This document shows positions 1 to 9,403 of a DNA stretch of 64,000 nt, piece after piece (positions within the stretch are counted from its first letter, which is position 1; every line of letters starts with the position of its first letter). Made by a program: the position numbers and the translations under genes. The DNA lies in the NCBI RefSeq assembly GCF_016026235.1, contig NZ_CP065613.1; one strand, 5' to 3'. This stretch comes from Escherichia coli (GTDB lineage: Bacteria > Pseudomonadota > Gammaproteobacteria > Enterobacterales > Enterobacteriaceae). Below the pieces are notes generated by a model. That model searched no databases and was not told the origin of the DNA. It was given only the letters and a program-made list of their open reading frames with translations.

Positions 1-645
1 GCCAGAGCAAAAAATACTAAAGCTTTCCGTTTCACAAGTCAGGTTAATGACGCTATTAATCCTCCAAAACAACCAAGACAGCCACGAATTAGCGGAAACA
101 GAGCAATCACAGCAGCTTACTCAGCGAATATGAGCAAGCTAAAAGGCTTTGACCCTATTTTGCAGAAATACATCAAATCTCAATTTTACGGGCTATCTGC
201 TAAAGCTGGGGCAATGGATAATTCAAAATTCAATGAGAAGTTAGCTCAGTTAAATGCTTCAGTCAGAGAAGCAATTGCTAAAGCCAGAGGTCATACATCC
301 ACCAGCATTAATGGTGACAGAGCAGCTAGCAGCCTTGATAACCTGTCTTCAGCAGCAGTTAGAGCAGCAGGTGCATTTATCAGCTTTCAGGCTGTACTAT
401 CCGCTTATCAGCGAGTACTGGAAGTTGGTTTACAGCGTGCAAGTGCTGAACGTTCAATTGATTTCGTATTCGGTGACCAAAGTACACAGGTTAAAAAGTT
501 CATTCAGGATTTAACTCAAATTACTGGTATGGACACAACCGAAACACAAGCGCAATTTGCTTCATTTGGTGCATGAAGTGGCACACTGAATTTGGCCACC
601 TGAACAGAGGTGATATGCTCACCTCAGAACAACACAGGTGCTCCA

Positions 646-1814
<1,169 letters not shown>

Positions 1815-3088
1815 CCACTTCAGCAAGTGCAACGACTACGATGGGTCTTGAAGGGTCAGAAGAGCTATTTAAAAACCTTACAGGTTATGCTCGTTTAATG
1901 GGGCGTTCAGATGAGCAGATTCAAAGAGCATTAACCGCAGTGTCACAGATGGCCTCTAAGGGTCAGGTGATGGCTGAGGAGTTGAAGGGGCAATTATCTG
2001 AAGCTTTACCGGGTGCTACTCAGGCATTTGCAAAGGCTTTAGGTCTGACTGAAAAACAGCTTTTCGATAAGATGAAAAATGGTGATGTTAAAGCCTCTGA
2101 TGCACTTCCTAAGTTTGCTAAAGAACTTGGTGCACAGATTAATTCAAGAGGTGGCTGGAAAGCTATTCAGGATTCTACGCAGACGATGTTAGGAAACTTA
2201 AAGAATACTTGGAACAACTCACTAACGGATATTTTCAGAGGTTCTGAAAATGGTCTGCAAGATTTCACAAGAAGCCTAACAACGCTTTTAAACAGTTTAG
2301 GTGGAAGTGGTAAAAGTCTTGGTGAATCTCTTGGTAGCTTGATGAGCGATATGTCGCATGGTGTCGATAGTCTGACTGATATCAGCTACAGGGTGAGAGC
2401 GTTCTTTGATGAGGTGACATTAGCTTACCGTGGTTTAACCGATGAGCAAAAGAAAGTAGTTGATGCTTTAGGTTCTGGCTTGATTAATAGTTTAAAAGTC
2501 TTGGCTGGTGTTATTGCTGTAAATAAAGTTGTTGGTGTAACCAGAAGTATTTACGGGCTTATGACTGCTATCACAAGATTAGGTCAGGTCGCTGATACAA
2601 CAGCGGATAACGTGAATAGAAAGAATGGGAAACCATCAAGATTGAATCTTGGGAATATGCTATTAGCTGGTAGCGCTCTCTATGCAGGTTATGAAAGATT
2701 AGCCTCTACACCTGAACGAATGGAAGCACAAGCTAAATTACCAGAGCTGGCTAAAGAGTCTGGACTTAAACCCGCTTTCACTATGGATGATGTTAAAGGG
2801 TGGTTTAATAGTGCTGCTATGAATCTTGCTAACTTCCAGCATCCAGAATTAAACAACATTAAGCAAGATTCAGCATTAACGAGTGCAGATATCCAAAGCC
2901 TGAGAGATGAAATCTCCGCTTTGAGCAAACGTATTCAGGAGCCTGTGAAAGTTTCACTTGGTGGTGAAGTTGCCATTAAACCAGATGAAACCAGCTTTAT
3001 GACCTTTAGCAGTAATATCTACGACCAATATGCAGAAGCTACGCTATTAAGTTCATCATTCCCAGAAGATGATTAATAATAGTCGAAT

Positions 3089-3143
3089 GCTACGTGAATA
3101 AAGCAAAGTTAATACCCACACCAAAAGTTATTTTTCACGTAGC
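3089..3143. repeat. 10-bp perfect inverted repeat GCTACGTGAA / TTCACGTAGC with a 35-bp spacer
   Basis: Read directly in the intergenic region between the tape-measure gene and the next phage gene. Confidence 0.5.
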
Positions 3144-4111
3144 TCACGCTTAACAGAGAAAATACTTATATATCAAAGGAGAATTTAATGATTTACACTA
3201 ATCAGCTTCGTTACACTGGTAAAGATGGCGTTTACTTCCACTTAAGAGATAATGTAGATGCCTTCTTAACCTTATCAGCAACTGAAAACATGGAATTTGA
3301 TAGCCCTATGATGGTTACCACTCAAAATATGCAATCAGGGCAAACCGTCACAGATAATGTTCAAAGAGCACCCAGAACAATTACTATTAGTGGTGTGGTT
3401 GTAGTTGGTGAATCCGGTAGTATCCTTATCTCAAGAGATAATAAGCTGGTAGAAAACTTCATTGACACTCTTGAAAGCTGGCGTGACCAGAAGCAGATTA
3501 TTTCGGTCATCTGTAAAGACGGAATTAAAATTGATGATTCCATTATTACAAGCTTTAAAGCCTCTAAAGATGTTGGTATTTCAAATGGCCTAAGAATCCA
3601 GCTAACTTTTCAGGAAATTAACTTCAAAGCTATTGTGGGTCAAACTGATATTTCGGCTGCAACTGGAAAGACTGCTACCACAAATGATGGTGGTGCTACC
3701 AGTAAAAAGAATACAGGGAACACTACGACAAGTTTAGGTAATGGTATGTTGATGTGTCAGGAGCTATATAATCGCTCTACGAGTGAACTTACTAATGAGC
3801 AACTTCAAGCCCGTATCAATTGTGGTAAAAGTGTCAAAGTTGAGAATGGAAAAAGCACCTTCTCAGATGCCGCTAATGAGCAAGCTTCAAAGGTGCTTAA
3901 TAATGCTGGTACAGGTAGTGCGTATTTTCATGAAAGGAGATCACTCAATAACTTCCATCGAGATCGGGTAATAACATTTGAACAGATCGCTGAATAACAT
4001 CGATGGAGATCACTTTTGACTCATTTTGTTATTCAGTGATCTCCATCAATGTTATTGGAACTTCACAGGTGTGTTGATCTGTATCTTTTGCCATTCCGGT
4101 AAAGGATACCT

Positions 4112-5512
4112 ATGCCAACAGTTCCAATTTCTATGAGAAAACTTAAAGAAATTCTTAGGCTTAAATACGGTGTTGGACTCAGCCATCGACAAATTGGTCG
4201 TAGTCTTGCAATCTCCCCTTCCGTTGTATCCAGATATGCTAATCGGGCGGCTCAACTTGGCATAAAGCAGTGGCCCTTACCTACAGGATGGGATGATACA
4301 AAACTAAAACATGCGTTCCTTCAGACCCAGGTTAAGATGAAGAAGCACTCTCTGCCTGACTGGGCTACAGTACACTGGGAACTGCGTAATAAATGCGTGA
4401 CGCTGCAGCTACTCTGGGAAGAATACTGTGAGCGTAATCCAGGCGGTTTTTACAGCTATAACCATTACTGCCGGATGTACCGTGAATGGCTCAAAACCAC
4501 TTCACCATCAATGCGTCAGGTACATAAAGCTGGCGAAAAACTTTTCGTTGATTACTGTGGACCTACCGTTGGCGTTACCGACCCTGAGACCGGAGAAATA
4601 AGAACTGCTCAGGTCATCGTAGCTGTTCTCGGGGCATCAAGTTACACATGGGCAGAGGCCACCTGGTCTCAGCAGCTTGAAGACTGGGTGATGAGTCATG
4701 TTCGCTGCTTCCAGTGGTTGGGTGGCGTTCCTGAACTTGTTGTTCCGGACAATCTGAAAAGCGCCACATCCAGGGCATGTAAGTATGATCCTGACGTTAA
4801 CCCTACCTACCAGCAGATGCTTGAGCATTATAATGTCGCAGTTTTGCCTGCGCGGCCACGTAAACCGAAAGATAAAGCCAAAGCTGAAGTTGGCGTTCAG
4901 GTTGTTGAACGCTGGATCATGGCCCGAATCAGGCATGAGATCTTCTACAGCCTTGCATCGCTTAATCAGCGCATTCGGGAGTTGCTGGAAAGACTGAATA
5001 ACAAAATAATGCAGAAGTTGGGTTATTCACGTGCAGAACTCTTCATCCAGCTTGATAAACCCGCACTGAAGCCTCTTCCTGAAGCCAGTTACAGTTACAC
5101 CCTGGTGAAGAAAGTCAGAGTTCATGCCGATTACCACGTGGAAATCGACAAACATTACTACTCGGTTCCATGTTCGCTGTTAGGCCAGCAACTGGAAGCA
5201 TGGATCTCCGGAGAACTGGTAAGACTCTTCAATCAGGGGCAGGAGGTTGCTGTGCACCCGCGCAAGCGTACTTATGGCTACAGTACCCGCAACGAGCACA
5301 TGCCTGAAGCTCATCGACAGCATGCCACCTGGACGCCAGAGCGTCTTCTGGAATGGGCGGGGCACATAGGCAGTGAAACTCATAGTTATGTGCTTCATAT
5401 ACTGAACTCTCGTCCACATCCGGAACAAAGCTATCGCTTCTGCCTTGGACTCCTGAACCTTCATAAAAATACAGTAAAGCCAGACTTAATGCAGCATGTG
5501 CAAGAGCTCTGA
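4112..5512 (+). CDS. istA: IS21-family transposase IstA, apparently frameshifted near its 3' end
   Basis: N-terminal helix-turn-helix-like region MRKLKEILRLKYGVGLSHRQIGRSLAISPSVVSRYANRA and a DDE-type body. The ORF stops at 5512, but the -1 frame is open from 5467 to 5652 and ends 12 nt before istB. Confidence 0.8.
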   Translation: MPTVPISMRKLKEILRLKYGVGLSHRQIGRSLAISPSVVSRYANRAAQLGIKQWPLPTGWDDTKLKHAFLQTQVKMKKHSLPDWATVHWELRNKCVTLQLLWEEYCERNPGGFYSYNHYCRMYREWLKTTSPSMRQVHKAGEKLFVDYCGPTVGVTDPETGEIRTAQVIVAVLGASSYTWAEATWSQQLEDWVMSHVRCFQWLGGVPELVVPDNLKSATSRACKYDPDVNPTYQQMLEHYNVAVLPARPRKPKDKAKAEVGVQVVERWIMARIRHEIFYSLASLNQRIRELLERLNNKIMQKLGYSRAELFIQLDKPALKPLPEASYSYTLVKKVRVHADYHVEIDKHYYSVPCSLLGQQLEAWISGELVRLFNQGQEVAVHPRKRTYGYSTRNEHMPEAHRQHATWTPERLLEWAGHIGSETHSYVLHILNSRPHPEQSYRFCLGLLNLHKNTVKPDLMQHVQEL

Positions 5513-5663
5513 AAACAAAGGTATGGCGTCTGTCAGGTATTAAATCGATCCTGGAAAAAGGTCTGGATAAACAACCTGTTCAGGATCCAAAACCAGATCT
5601 GTTATCCACGATGGAACACGAAAACGTACGCGGCAGTGAGTATTACCACTGATACGGGATCCA

Positions 5664-6413
5664 ATGATGAATCATCTTTACGAACAACTGACCGCACTTA
5701 AACTCACCGGCTTCCGTGATGCGCTTAAAAAGCAACTTGCTCAGCCGGGCACATACCAGGAGCTGGGCTTCGAAGAACGCCTGTCATTACTGACAGCAGA
5801 AGAACTAACCTGCCGTGAAAACAGGAAGGCAGAGCGTCTGATCAAACATGCACGGTTCAGACTTAATGCTGAGTTATCAAAGCTGGATTATCGTAACAAT
5901 AGAGGGCTGGACAGGGCCCTCATCCGTTCACTCAGTCAGGGAAACTGGTTAACCCTGAAACAAAATATTTTACTGACCGGGGCCACCGGCAGCGGTAAAA
6001 CGTTCCTGGCATGTGCACTTGGTCATAATGCCTGCCGACAGGGATACAAGGTCTACTATTATCGCCTTAAAGCGCTGATGGAACAGTGCTATCAGGGGCA
6101 TGCTGATGGAAGATACAGCAAACTTTTGACTAGGCTGAATAATAGCGATCTGCTGCTTCTGGATGACTGGGGGCTGGAACCTCTCTCATCAGAACAGCGT
6201 AGCGACCTGCTGGAAATAGTGGATCTGATGTACCAACGAGGCTCAATCATCGTAGTGAGCCAGTTGCCGGTGGAAAACTGGTACAAAATGATCGGAGACT
6301 CCACACATGCGGATGCCATCCTAGATCGACTGGTTCATGGCAGTATCAAGATTGAACTTAAAGGAGAATCAATGCGGAAAATACAATCTCCGTTGACCGA
6401 AGGAGATCAGTGA
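5664..6413 (+). CDS. istB: IS21-family helper ATPase IstB
   Basis: Walker A motif LLTGATGSGKTFLACALG and DnaC-like layout, located immediately after istA. Confidence 0.9.
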   Translation: MMNHLYEQLTALKLTGFRDALKKQLAQPGTYQELGFEERLSLLTAEELTCRENRKAERLIKHARFRLNAELSKLDYRNNRGLDRALIRSLSQGNWLTLKQNILLTGATGSGKTFLACALGHNACRQGYKVYYYRLKALMEQCYQGHADGRYSKLLTRLNNSDLLLLDDWGLEPLSSEQRSDLLEIVDLMYQRGSIIVVSQLPVENWYKMIGDSTHADAILDRLVHGSIKIELKGESMRKIQSPLTEGDQ

Positions 6414-6560
6414 AGGTAATTTAAAAACGGTTCTGTGAAAGTGACACGAACCGATCTCCATCGATGTTACTCACCGATCTCCTTCACGGTAATACGCAGG
6501 TAGTACTTTGAAGAAGTTTAGTGTGAATCCTAACAAGCGATACTGACGATAGAATCTCAA

Positions 6561-8090
6561 CTATATGATAACCTCATCAACATCTATTAAACCCCTCTCA
6601 GTGACTTCAGAAAGCGACTGTATAGCCTCTGTAACGTCCTCTGAGGGGTTTTCTGTTATTGGTAGGTCAATTACCTTACCGTTGTGAAAAGTTACTTTAC
6701 AGCGACGTTTAGCGGCATCTATAACTATTTCTTTGAGTACGCCCTTGATAAGTAGCTGTGTCTCTACCATCCCTTCCTTTGTTGTCCTGTCAATATCTTT
6801 GAGGCTTCCAGTTGTGATGGCCTTTATCCGCTGTGTTTCCTCTTCGATATCATGATTGAGTTTTGATAGCGCATTCTTCATATCACGTAATTTCTCTGTG
6901 ATAATTGTCATGTCATCGAGTTCAATAGCGAGTTCTGCCATTTTTGAGATTTTACGCTGCAAATCTTCACGCTGTAATTTAAGGCTATCAATAGTGTCAG
7001 TATTTTCAGTTTCAAAACGGTCGCATAATGCGAGCATGTAAAGGATAGTTGCATCCGTTTGCTTACGACTGATAGCCTTTGCACTACACCTGTTAGCTGA
7101 ACGATTAGGACATCTGTACATCCCAAAACGTTTTAAGGCATATCCACCAAGAACAATAGTAGCCCCACACTCAGAACATTTGATGATACCCCTGAACAAG
7201 TTGACTGATAGCGGATTACTTGATACAGAAGCCCTACCATATTGCCCTGTGTTCAGTTGCTGTACTCGATAGAATAGTGACTCACTGATTATTGCGGGGT
7301 AGTAACCCTGAACTTCTTCACGTCCAGCAGGTGTGAAACATCCAATCACAGCACGATTTCTGAGTAGTTTCTTTACAGCAGTATCAGACCATCCCTTTTG
7401 TTTAGGTGTGTATTGATTCAATGACAAGTGGCCTTCATCGTTTAAAGTTCTGGTGATAGCCCAAAAGCTTAAACCCTGTAATCTCAGGTCAAATGCTCGT
7501 TTAACAACTTCCACTTTATCGGGGATGATAGTGAATGTTCGACGGTCATCATTCAGCCTTAACCATGCAGGACAACGCCTAGATACCTTGATACCTTCGG
7601 AGATGAGTTCTTTTTTACGGTTCCATGCAGCTTGGACACGCTCAGACTTCCTCAGACTTTCCTCATGCGCCCGCTGCATTATCAGAATGCTTTTAATCAG
7701 GGATAACGGGTCTTTTAAACTTTCTCGTGTGTAATGTTCACCATCGGACAGGGTGACTACATCTACACCAGCCCTTAAGATACGGCGTAATAGCTCAGAA
7801 GCAATATCAATATCCTGACGTGACAGACGGTCTAAACTCTCGATTAGTAGCGTATCACCAGCTTTAACAAGCCCTTTCTCGATAGCGGTTAGAAAGTCAC
7901 CTAGACCACCTTTCAGGTGCTTACCACTAAAAGCACTTTTCCCCAAATCTTTAAAGCTCAAGGATGAATCCAAGTAAAACTCAGGGTTCTTATCAAGCCA
8001 GTCAGTAACCAGCTTAGATTGTCTGCGTACAGAGTCCCCTTTTAGTTGTCGTTCACTTGAAAATCTGATGTAGCTGATTGCCCGTCTCAT
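6561..8090 (-). CDS. Large serine recombinase (phage integrase type)
   Basis: N-terminal resolvase-like catalytic region (AISYIRFSSERQ), a cysteine-rich zinc-ribbon-like segment (CSECGATIV...YRCPNRSANRCS) and a C-terminal extension. ATG at 8088-8090 is preferred over the TTG at 8096 used by the ORF track. Confidence 0.85.
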   Translation of the reverse strand: MRRAISYIRFSSERQLKGDSVRRQSKLVTDWLDKNPEFYLDSSLSFKDLGKSAFSGKHLKGGLGDFLTAIEKGLVKAGDTLLIESLDRLSRQDIDIASELLRRILRAGVDVVTLSDGEHYTRESLKDPLSLIKSILIMQRAHEESLRKSERVQAAWNRKKELISEGIKVSRRCPAWLRLNDDRRTFTIIPDKVEVVKRAFDLRLQGLSFWAITRTLNDEGHLSLNQYTPKQKGWSDTAVKKLLRNRAVIGCFTPAGREEVQGYYPAIISESLFYRVQQLNTGQYGRASVSSNPLSVNLFRGIIKCSECGATIVLGGYALKRFGMYRCPNRSANRCSAKAISRKQTDATILYMLALCDRFETENTDTIDSLKLQREDLQRKISKMAELAIELDDMTIITEKLRDMKNALSKLNHDIEEETQRIKAITTGSLKDIDRTTKEGMVETQLLIKGVLKEIVIDAAKRRCKVTFHNGKVIDLPITENPSEDVTEAIQSLSEVTERGLIDVDEVII

Positions 8091-8094
8091 ATTC

Positions 8095-8130
8095 AATACC
8101 TAAAATGATGTGTTTAGGAACCCATTATAC
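8095..8130. other. Prophage-chromosome junction (attR-type site) within mdtG
   Basis: mdtG-like codons diverge from the recalled K-12 sequence about 8120-8128 and are followed by phage-derived codons MGS and a stop. Inverted repeat CCTAAA-N8-TTTAGG at 8099-8118. Confidence 0.5.
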
Positions 8131-8311
8131 TGAAGACAATACCGGACCACATATTCAGGGCGGAGTGGCCGGTAACGCCAAGCTGCTCAACGTAGAGGGG
8201 TAAGAAGGGCATTACCAGACTGAAGGCGGCACCGGTAAGAAAACAGCCTAGCCAGGCGACGATCAGGTTTCGTTTCCAGTTTATAGGGGTGTCATTTTCA
8301 CAGGGTGACAT
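8114..8311 (-). pseudogene. mdtG: mdtG (yceE) 5' fragment, about 62 native codons, truncated by prophage insertion
   Basis: Translation [62 protein letters not shown] matches the recalled MdtG N-terminus, then ends MGS-stop instead of continuing into the transporter. Confidence 0.85.
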
Positions 8312-8482
8312 AGCAATCCGCTATTGGTGCGCCAGGCGCGGTGAACATAAGAAGAAAAGATAAGCACACTAATTATGCGCCCGACTTCCAGGGGGTGCAA
8401 TCCAGAGAGCTTTTATCGCTAAATCAGGGGGATTTGCTGTGGTAATGCCGGATGCCATTCTGAAGCATCCGGCATGGAAGAT

Positions 8483-9403
8483 TTAATAGCGTGAAGGAAC
8501 GCCTTCCGGGCGTGTTTTAAAGCGACGGTGTAACCACATATACTGCTCTGGTGCCATCATGATGCATTTTTCGACCACTTTGTTCATCCACGCGGCGGTA
8601 GTTTCGGCATCATCCAGTGGCGGAGAACACTCTGGCGGCAGCATAATCAATTGATACCCTTTGCCATCTGGCTTACGGCGTGGAACGAAGGGCACCAGAC
8701 ATGCGCCGGACATCCGTGCCAGCATCCAGGTTCCGGTCGTGGTCGCAGCCTGCTCAACGGCAAATAACGGGACGAAAACGCTTGAGCGCGGGCCGTAATC
8801 ATGATCCGGTGCGTACCAGACCACTTCGCCTTTTTTCAGGGCTTTAATCATGCCTTTTAAATCTTTGCGGTCGAGCATCGATTTATTTGAGCGCAAACGG
8901 CCCCAGGTTTGTAGCCAGTCAATCAGTGGATTATCGTTCGGGCGGTAAACGCCAATCCCCGGTTCCTGCATACCAAACTGCCGCGCGCCCAGCTCCAGTG
9001 TCAGAAAATGGATGCCAACTAACAGGATGCCGCGTTTTTGCGCCTGCACGTCACGAATGTGTTCCATGCCGATCACTTCCGTCCAGCGGGCGATTCGGCG
9101 GTCCGGCCAGAACCACGCCATGCCGGTTTCCATCAGGCCCATGCCAACGGATTCGAAATTCTTCACCACCATTTTACGGCGTTCTTGTTCGCTCATTTCC
9201 GGGAAGCACAGTTCCAGGTTGCGATGCACAATTTTTGCGCGTCGTTTCATAAAACGTAACGCCAGTTTTCCTAATCCACAACCGAGGCGGTAGATAACCG
9301 GGTAGGGCAATTGCACGACTAACCAAAGTACGCCAATACCCAACCAGGTTAACCAATAACGCGGATGAAGCAGTGCGGTGGAGAACTTGGGTAGATTCGT
9401 CAT
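8483..9403 (-). CDS. lpxL: Lipid A biosynthesis lauroyltransferase LpxL (HtrB)
   Basis: 306 aa from MTNLPKF, matching recalled LpxL; synteny next to mdtG. Confidence 0.93.

Follow-up and report, generated by a model that had tools for sequence, protein, structure and literature searches.

Described relatives of the locus

In elements of the IS21 family, istA, encoding a transposase with an HTH region and a DDE domain, is followed by istB, encoding an AAA+ helper ATPase. ISEc12 is a member of this family and very common in Escherichia coli: a 2551-nt query spanning both genes finds matches in 2336 complete E. coli genome records, in 958 records of plasmids and in four of complete phages, and the majority of the matches are ≥99% identical. 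Intact copies measure 2581 bp and contain a 1542-nt istA that encodes 513 amino acids (WP_001298859.1), together with the IstB protein WP_001016257.1. The target duplication of ISEc12 has been reported as 5 bp (PMC10711316).

Structures are available for the IstA of IS5376 from Geobacillus stearothermophilus (PDB 8B4H, 8Q4D). Its DDE domain and β-barrel are homologous to those of ISEc12 IstA (E = 4e-13, query residues 109–391), and both proteins continue past the β-barrel in a C-terminal extension, which comprises ~45 residues in IS5376 and about 125 residues in ISEc12. The last ~45 residues of IS5376 IstA are flexible and contain two predicted helices (PMC10122671). Cryo-EM complexes show this C-terminal region as disordered or not at all (PMC10122671, PMC11208146), and its role is left undefined by the published structures (PMC11208146). 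One of its residues, Q369, contacts a flipped base, and mutation of this residue lowers integration activity (PMC10122671).

A transposase gene of another type is found in IS911, a member of the IS3 family. Its orfA and orfB are overlapping frames joined at an A-rich site, and every copy has both the sequence A-AAA-AAG and this two-frame layout.

The window, i.e., the whole stretch of 64,000 nucleotides of E. coli DNA that was analysed, contains a full-length ISEc12 copy with a broken istA frame. The explanation that best accounts for the locus, and that is considered probable, is a resident ISEc12 copy in which a slippage deletion in a run of six A residues (A6) has left istA defective. Frameshifted copies of such a widespread insertion sequence are ordinary; the case is of an already known kind and involves no new mechanism.

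An ISEc12 insertion in a prophage tail gene

The element interrupts a prophage tail or baseplate gene within its 3′ end, with the following arrangement:

3188..3918, plus strand: prophage tail or baseplate gene, 5′ part (phrog_3721 at 1e-126; the BA22372 homologue is annotated as 'phage baseplate protein')
3914..3918: target duplication GGTAG, left copy (empty-site alignment)
3919..6498, plus strand: ISEc12 (IS21 family), complete copy of 2580 bp versus the 2581-bp consensus (boundaries from alignment to copies in other contexts and from empty-site comparison)
6499..6503: target duplication GGTAG, right copy (alignments and empty-site comparison)
6504..6546, plus strand: interrupted prophage gene, 3′ remainder of 43 nt with its stop at 6544–6546

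Over its full length, the element is 99.8% identical to annotated ISEc12 copies, with four differences in 2581 positions. Its ends read TGCGTATT...AATACGCA, i.e., TG...CA, as is found at IS21 ends; the terminal inverted repeats are imperfect, and GGAGATC blocks are repeated at both ends. The IS21 gene order is present. IstA matches the NF033546 model (transpos_IS21, 1.8e-92) and contains rve and Mu-transpos_C_2 domains (Pfam, NCBIfam), while IstB corresponds to a full-length IS21 helper ATPase (PF01695 at 2e-67, NF038214 at 2e-80). Ends, 5-bp duplication and istA–istB layout are thus shared with the ISEc12 reference, from which the window copy deviates by a run of five instead of six A residues (A5), by an R89W exchange in IstA and by two synonymous changes in istB.

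The interrupted prophage ORF now continues into the insertion sequence and stops at 3995–3997. When positions 3919–6503 are removed, the sequence becomes colinear with the prophage homologue of E. coli BA22372, which is not interrupted; the 731 nt and 43 nt on the two sides add up to 774 nt, which is the length of the homologue. The intact ends and the 5-bp duplication demonstrate that the window copy is a simple insertion that arose by normal transposition. An Rfam scan of window positions 1–9000 gave no matches, and a promoter and terminator scan of the element yielded nothing informative.

The first 8200 nucleotides of the window begin within a prophage or prophage remnant, which abuts lpxL and contains a tape-measure gene, the gene for the baseplate-like protein and a gene for a 511-aa serine recombinase (6561–8096, minus strand). 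The nearest chromosome, that of FDAARGOS_943, lacks this prophage region at the site. A 90–95% related remnant is found in 74 E. coli genomes (e.g., BA22372, NZ_CP040397.1, positions 3375597–3379755), where a separate ISEc12 insertion is located ~0.5 kb away, within the recombinase gene, and IS2 adjoins a tape-measure fragment. As this insertion is independent, related prophage ends have been struck by ISEc12 twice. When 5,426 E. coli genomes were queried with the left junction, the matches were confined to related prophages (95% identity) that have ISEc12 at another position. In the plasmid collection, no match to the same insertion extended past the IS end, the exact junction pattern was not found in IMG/VR, and the phage collection contained no close match to the flanking prophage plus chromosome.

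Loss of one A from the istA reading frame

Within the element, the two genes are arranged as follows:

4112..5467, plus strand: istA codons 1–452 in the native frame (HTH region at the N-terminus; DDE (rve) domain, residues 139–252; β-barrel (Mu-transpos_C_2), residues 322–385)
5465..5469, plus strand: A5 run, site of the 1-bp deletion (consensus A6, CTTCATAAAAAATAC; from alignments)
5468..5512, plus strand: out-of-frame tail of 14 codons, NTVKPDLMQHVQEL, followed by a premature TGA
5467..5652, plus strand: 3′ end of istA, shifted to the −1 frame, native codons 453–513 (61 aa), with the natural TGA at 5650–5652
5664..6413, plus strand: istB, AAA+ helper ATPase, intact (the RefSeq start is the second ATG, 5667)

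The istA ORF at 4112–5512 consists of 466 codons and a TGA at 5510–5512. In the −1 frame, a TAA at 5464–5466 is followed by a stretch that is open from 5467 up to the TGA at 5650–5652. This natural stop lies ~11–12 nt ahead of the first istB ATG (5664) and 14 nt ahead of the ATG at 5667. The original prediction had placed the IstA stop at 5512, an open −1 frame at 5467–5652 and the istB start 12 nt further on, and all of these coordinates are confirmed.

The translation of the −1 frame, KYSKARLNAACARALKTKVWRLSGIKSILEKGLDKQPVQDPKPDLLSTMEHENVRGSEYYH, agrees at every residue with the C-terminal end of intact ISEc12 IstA. By chance, 61 codons without a stop occur with a probability of (61/64)^61, or ~5%, and are not rare as such; since the stretch lacks a start codon close to position 5467, it is absent from the ORF list. 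Because its translation matches the intact C-terminus and is conserved in 16 homologues, the stretch 5467–5652 makes sense solely as the continuation of istA. The idea that the IstA C-terminus is encoded in another frame therefore agrees with intact ISEc12, but its proposed length of "45 or so" codons has to be corrected to 61 (codons 453–513). The smaller figure results from counting from the premature stop instead of the shift point at the A run (5465–5469).

Relative to two consensus copies, the window copy shows four differences: A6 is shortened to A5, and C>T changes occur at 4376, 6131 and 6353. The change at 4376 leads to R89W in IstA, while those at 6131 and 6353 are synonymous in istB. 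The A6 run is the only one in istA and the longest homopolymer in the gene. If one A is restored, a 513-aa protein is obtained that deviates from the WP_001298859.1 cluster (P0001) solely by R89W. A 1-bp indel had been suspected at this site, and alignment to intact copies, the check that had been suggested, shows that exactly one A is missing; as judged from these alignments, the frame break is caused by shortening of the A6 run by one A. The encoded product consists of 452 native and 14 unrelated residues and lacks 61 native residues; an exact look-up of this 466-aa product found no record. An autonomous element has an intact 513-codon istA, whereas the frame of the window copy is broken at 5465–5469. 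The copy is ISEc12 by descent, but probably a defective member.

Comparison with programmed frameshifting in IS911

An overlap of two frames at an A run, with the downstream frame ending at the canonical place before istB, is also the layout expected for programmed recoding, in which full-length IstA would be produced by −1 ribosomal frameshifting or by transcriptional slippage on the A run, as in the IS3 and IS1 families. A genuine site is available for comparison in the same window:

575..1824: IS911 (IS3 family), complete copy of 1250 bp with a 3-bp duplication, GCA, and the canonical A-AAA-AAG at 897–903

The IS911 and ISEc12 copies have in common that overlapping frames are joined at an A-rich site in a transposase gene. 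In IS911, this is the state of every copy, whereas the istA of ISEc12 is normally one ORF and is split over two frames only in rare mutants. Matches to a 70-mer with the run at its centre were obtained in 1855 E. coli records, 1839 of which contain A6 in frame (~99%) and 16 of which contain A5; the 16 records represent the ≥99%-identity band of this search, and 13 of them are listed as full-length 100% matches. The arrangement is equally absent from the homologues, since 16 of 16 are single ORFs. In the 0-frame, the window sequence reads CAU-AAA-AAU, and its U-AAA-AAU is not an X-XXY-YYZ heptamer. The 90 nt downstream have a minimum free energy of −17.8 kcal/mol compared to a mean of −16.1 for shuffled sequences (z = −0.59), which indicates no stimulatory structure. 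A run of five A residues is also too short for efficient transcriptional slippage. With a single ORF as the norm, no slippery heptamer and no downstream structure, programmed frameshifting in istA was rejected, and its probability is regarded as close to nil.

The IS911 copy is located ~2 kb upstream of ISEc12 and splits the prophage tape-measure gene into two fragments (130–576 and 1808–3076). Compared to the closest E. coli copy, it shows one C>T change (1414) and no indel.

The natural end of IstA and the putative function of its last 61 residues

A homologue search retrieved thousands of IstA relatives. Among the 120 best-scoring proteins listed, nearly all full-length relatives (59–91% identity) have a length of 513–515 aa, and a few of 507–518 aa; they cover 99–100% of the IstA query. 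The 16 homologues that were aligned (59–100% identity) are all 513–515 aa long, have a conserved C-terminus in common, and none of them ends at the equivalent of position 5512. An intact IstA with such an end had been named as the observation that would speak against a frameshift; neither the 1839 in-frame records among the 1855 nor the homologues down to 59% identity provide one.

In the 16-homologue alignment, the lost segment contains the motifs RLNxAC, IL-KGLD and EHxNxRGxxYYH, with nearly invariant residues H503, N505, R507, G508 and H513. Its mean majority fraction of 0.67 is close to that of the β-barrel (0.70), while the DDE domain reaches 0.79. The conservation of the last 61 residues implies selection for function. 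HTH, DDE and β-barrel domains are all located upstream of the shift and are unaffected; the lost part is only the conserved C-terminal extension, and every catalogued domain lies ahead of it. The alignment with IS5376 IstA, the sole relative of solved structure, stops before the lost segment, and no structure covers that segment.

These data bear on two readings of the deletion. It could be real but harmless, with the truncated IstA (residues 1–452 plus 14) still catalysing transposition and the copy remaining autonomous. The intact domains would fit this reading, as would the equal scores of truncated and full IstA with the NCBIfam IS21 transposase model (310 bits each) and the disordered or invisible C-terminal region in the cryo-EM complexes, for which no role has been defined (PMC10122671, PMC11208146). 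However, the 61 lost residues are maintained in length and sequence down to 59% identity, including a nearly invariant terminal motif, and IS5376 IstA requires a residue of its C-terminal region to reach full integration activity. Truncated alleles are furthermore rare, and no spreading lineage is seen among those examined. A harmless deletion is therefore considered improbable. The conservation of the lost segment rather suggests that the truncation reduces or abolishes autonomous transposition, which is proposed with good confidence.

In the favoured scenario of a defective istA, ISEc12 would have inserted into the prophage tail gene and later lost one A, most probably by replication slippage. 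Ribosomes would then terminate at 5510–5512 and produce IstA residues 1–452 followed by 14 unrelated residues, without the conserved last 61. Such a copy is most likely no longer capable of efficient transposition by its own means and would represent an istA pseudogene; the NCBI pipeline annotates equivalent copies as istA pseudogenes. Since both ends are identical to the consensus, an intact ISEc12 elsewhere in the genome could still mobilise the window copy in trans. Expression of IstB may also be lower, because ~150 nt ahead of istB would no longer be translated.

Truncated transposase derivatives restrain Tn5 and IS1. By analogy, truncated IstA might act as a trans-dominant inhibitor of intact ISEc12, either by occupying IS ends or by poisoning mixed tetramers, but this is judged very improbable. 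If it were the case, the A6 run would constitute a slippage-prone site through which hosts recurrently tame ISEc12.

For annotation, this istA is best marked as a pseudogene with a frameshift, without a separate gene at 5467–5652. Likewise, estimates of IS activity in the strain should leave the window copy out of the autonomous ISEc12 elements. Transposon biology gains one more natural allele without the IstA C-terminal extension and nothing else that is new.

Genuine deletion or sequencing error

A deletion of one A could also exist only in the assembly. The genome would then have the full A6 run and an unbroken istA, the shorter run being a homopolymer miscall. A single-base length change in the longest homopolymer of a gene is compatible with such a miscall, and no second assembly confirms the allele, neither among E. 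coli genomes, plasmids and IMG/VR nor in the protein look-up. The remainder of the window provides a control. Positions 8200–64000 correspond to E. coli chromosome (lpxL, flg operon, rne, fabHDG, ptsG, ndh) that is 99.9% identical to FDAARGOS_943, and a three-way alignment of window, FDAARGOS_943 and, as outgroup, SFE8 covers 53 kb. The 55.8-kb core has 63 homopolymer runs of ≥6 nt and 215 of ≥5 nt, and over the 53 kb compared not one of them deviates in length from its counterpart in the nearest genome, which bounds the error rate per run at about 5% or less. The sole homopolymer difference to SFE8 (23613, C5 against C6) is shared with FDAARGOS_943 and hence lineage-specific, and the IS911 copy 2 kb upstream is likewise free of indels. 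In total, 33 substitutions were counted over the 53 kb, together with two indels outside homopolymers, one of 1 bp and one of 5 bp. The clean homopolymers in the window favour a genuine deletion, so that A5 is regarded as probably real, and a sequencing or assembly error as unlikely.

The other A5 records were considered as possible relatives of the window allele. Three of these copies were fetched (BA22372, G5, E302); they are located in ypfH, near yhhH and in an ImcF-like gene, and in each of them istA is annotated as 'frameshifted' by PGAP. These pseudogenes have A5 at the same run as the window copy, but differ from it by their unrelated loci and by 3–16 further gap openings (4–16 gapped positions) at homopolymers and CCWGG sites, which extend to istB in two of the three. 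That these three copies lie in assemblies with a typical long-read indel pattern is a further point in favour of an error in the window. Common ancestry with the window A5 was rejected because the loci differ, the window substitutions are absent and many other indels are present. The three copies would thus seem to be independent events or assembly noise and not the window allele. The C>T changes of the window copy are private to it, as the best intact matches in 5,426 E. coli genomes all score exactly four differences. The record of ATCC 11775, the GTDB representative of E. coli, contains A6 and is not among the records matched by the junction query.

The public genomes BA22372, G5 and E302 are designated as complete, and their ISEc12 copies contain miscalls and gaps at CCWGG sites and homopolymers, i.e., the signature of long-read errors. 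Such errors are turned into 'frameshifted' istA and istB pseudogenes by PGAP, and counts of defective insertion sequences from such assemblies are consequently inflated.

Substitutions in the window and in the nearest genome

Polarised against SFE8, the window lineage shows 18 derived substitutions, 10 of which turn the inner C of CCNGG into T (18159, 27625, 38078, 46421, 47716, 56282 and 62918, for example, and also 24330, 55556 and 59232). Seven of them occur at CCSGG (P = 2e-13) and three at CCWGG, compared to none and three, respectively, in the FDAARGOS_943 lineage; the CCSGG contrast between the two lineages is significant (Fisher P = 0.009). Eight of the 10 CCNGG changes are nonsynonymous, as opposed to none of the six other coding changes (P = 0.007), and they affect genes such as ndh, yceG, lpoB, thiK, pabC, mdtH and flgG. 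Two of the three substitutions in the ISEc12 copy (4376 and 6131) belong to the same class. This pattern may reflect an additional CCNGG or CCSGG 5mC methyltransferase, with deamination events that escape Vsr repair. Alternatively, it could result from base-calling errors at methylation motifs in the assembly, e.g., from long reads. The excess of CCNGG-centred changes with its nonsynonymous bias is compatible with methylation-related miscalls, and if this were their origin, the prior for other errors, including the missing A, would be modestly higher.

An indel of ~80 bp separates the window at 19612–19615, near the yceH/yceM region, from both SFE8 and FDAARGOS_943. In FDAARGOS_943, C>T nonsense changes (CAG>TAG) are present at Dcm sites in flgE and flgF (window positions 26486 and 27099), and the corresponding window genes are intact. 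Ten of the 15 changes derived in the FDAARGOS_943 lineage are nonsynonymous, three of them in ptsG. The sequence changes in FDAARGOS_943 suggest relaxed selection or laboratory evolution of this strain.
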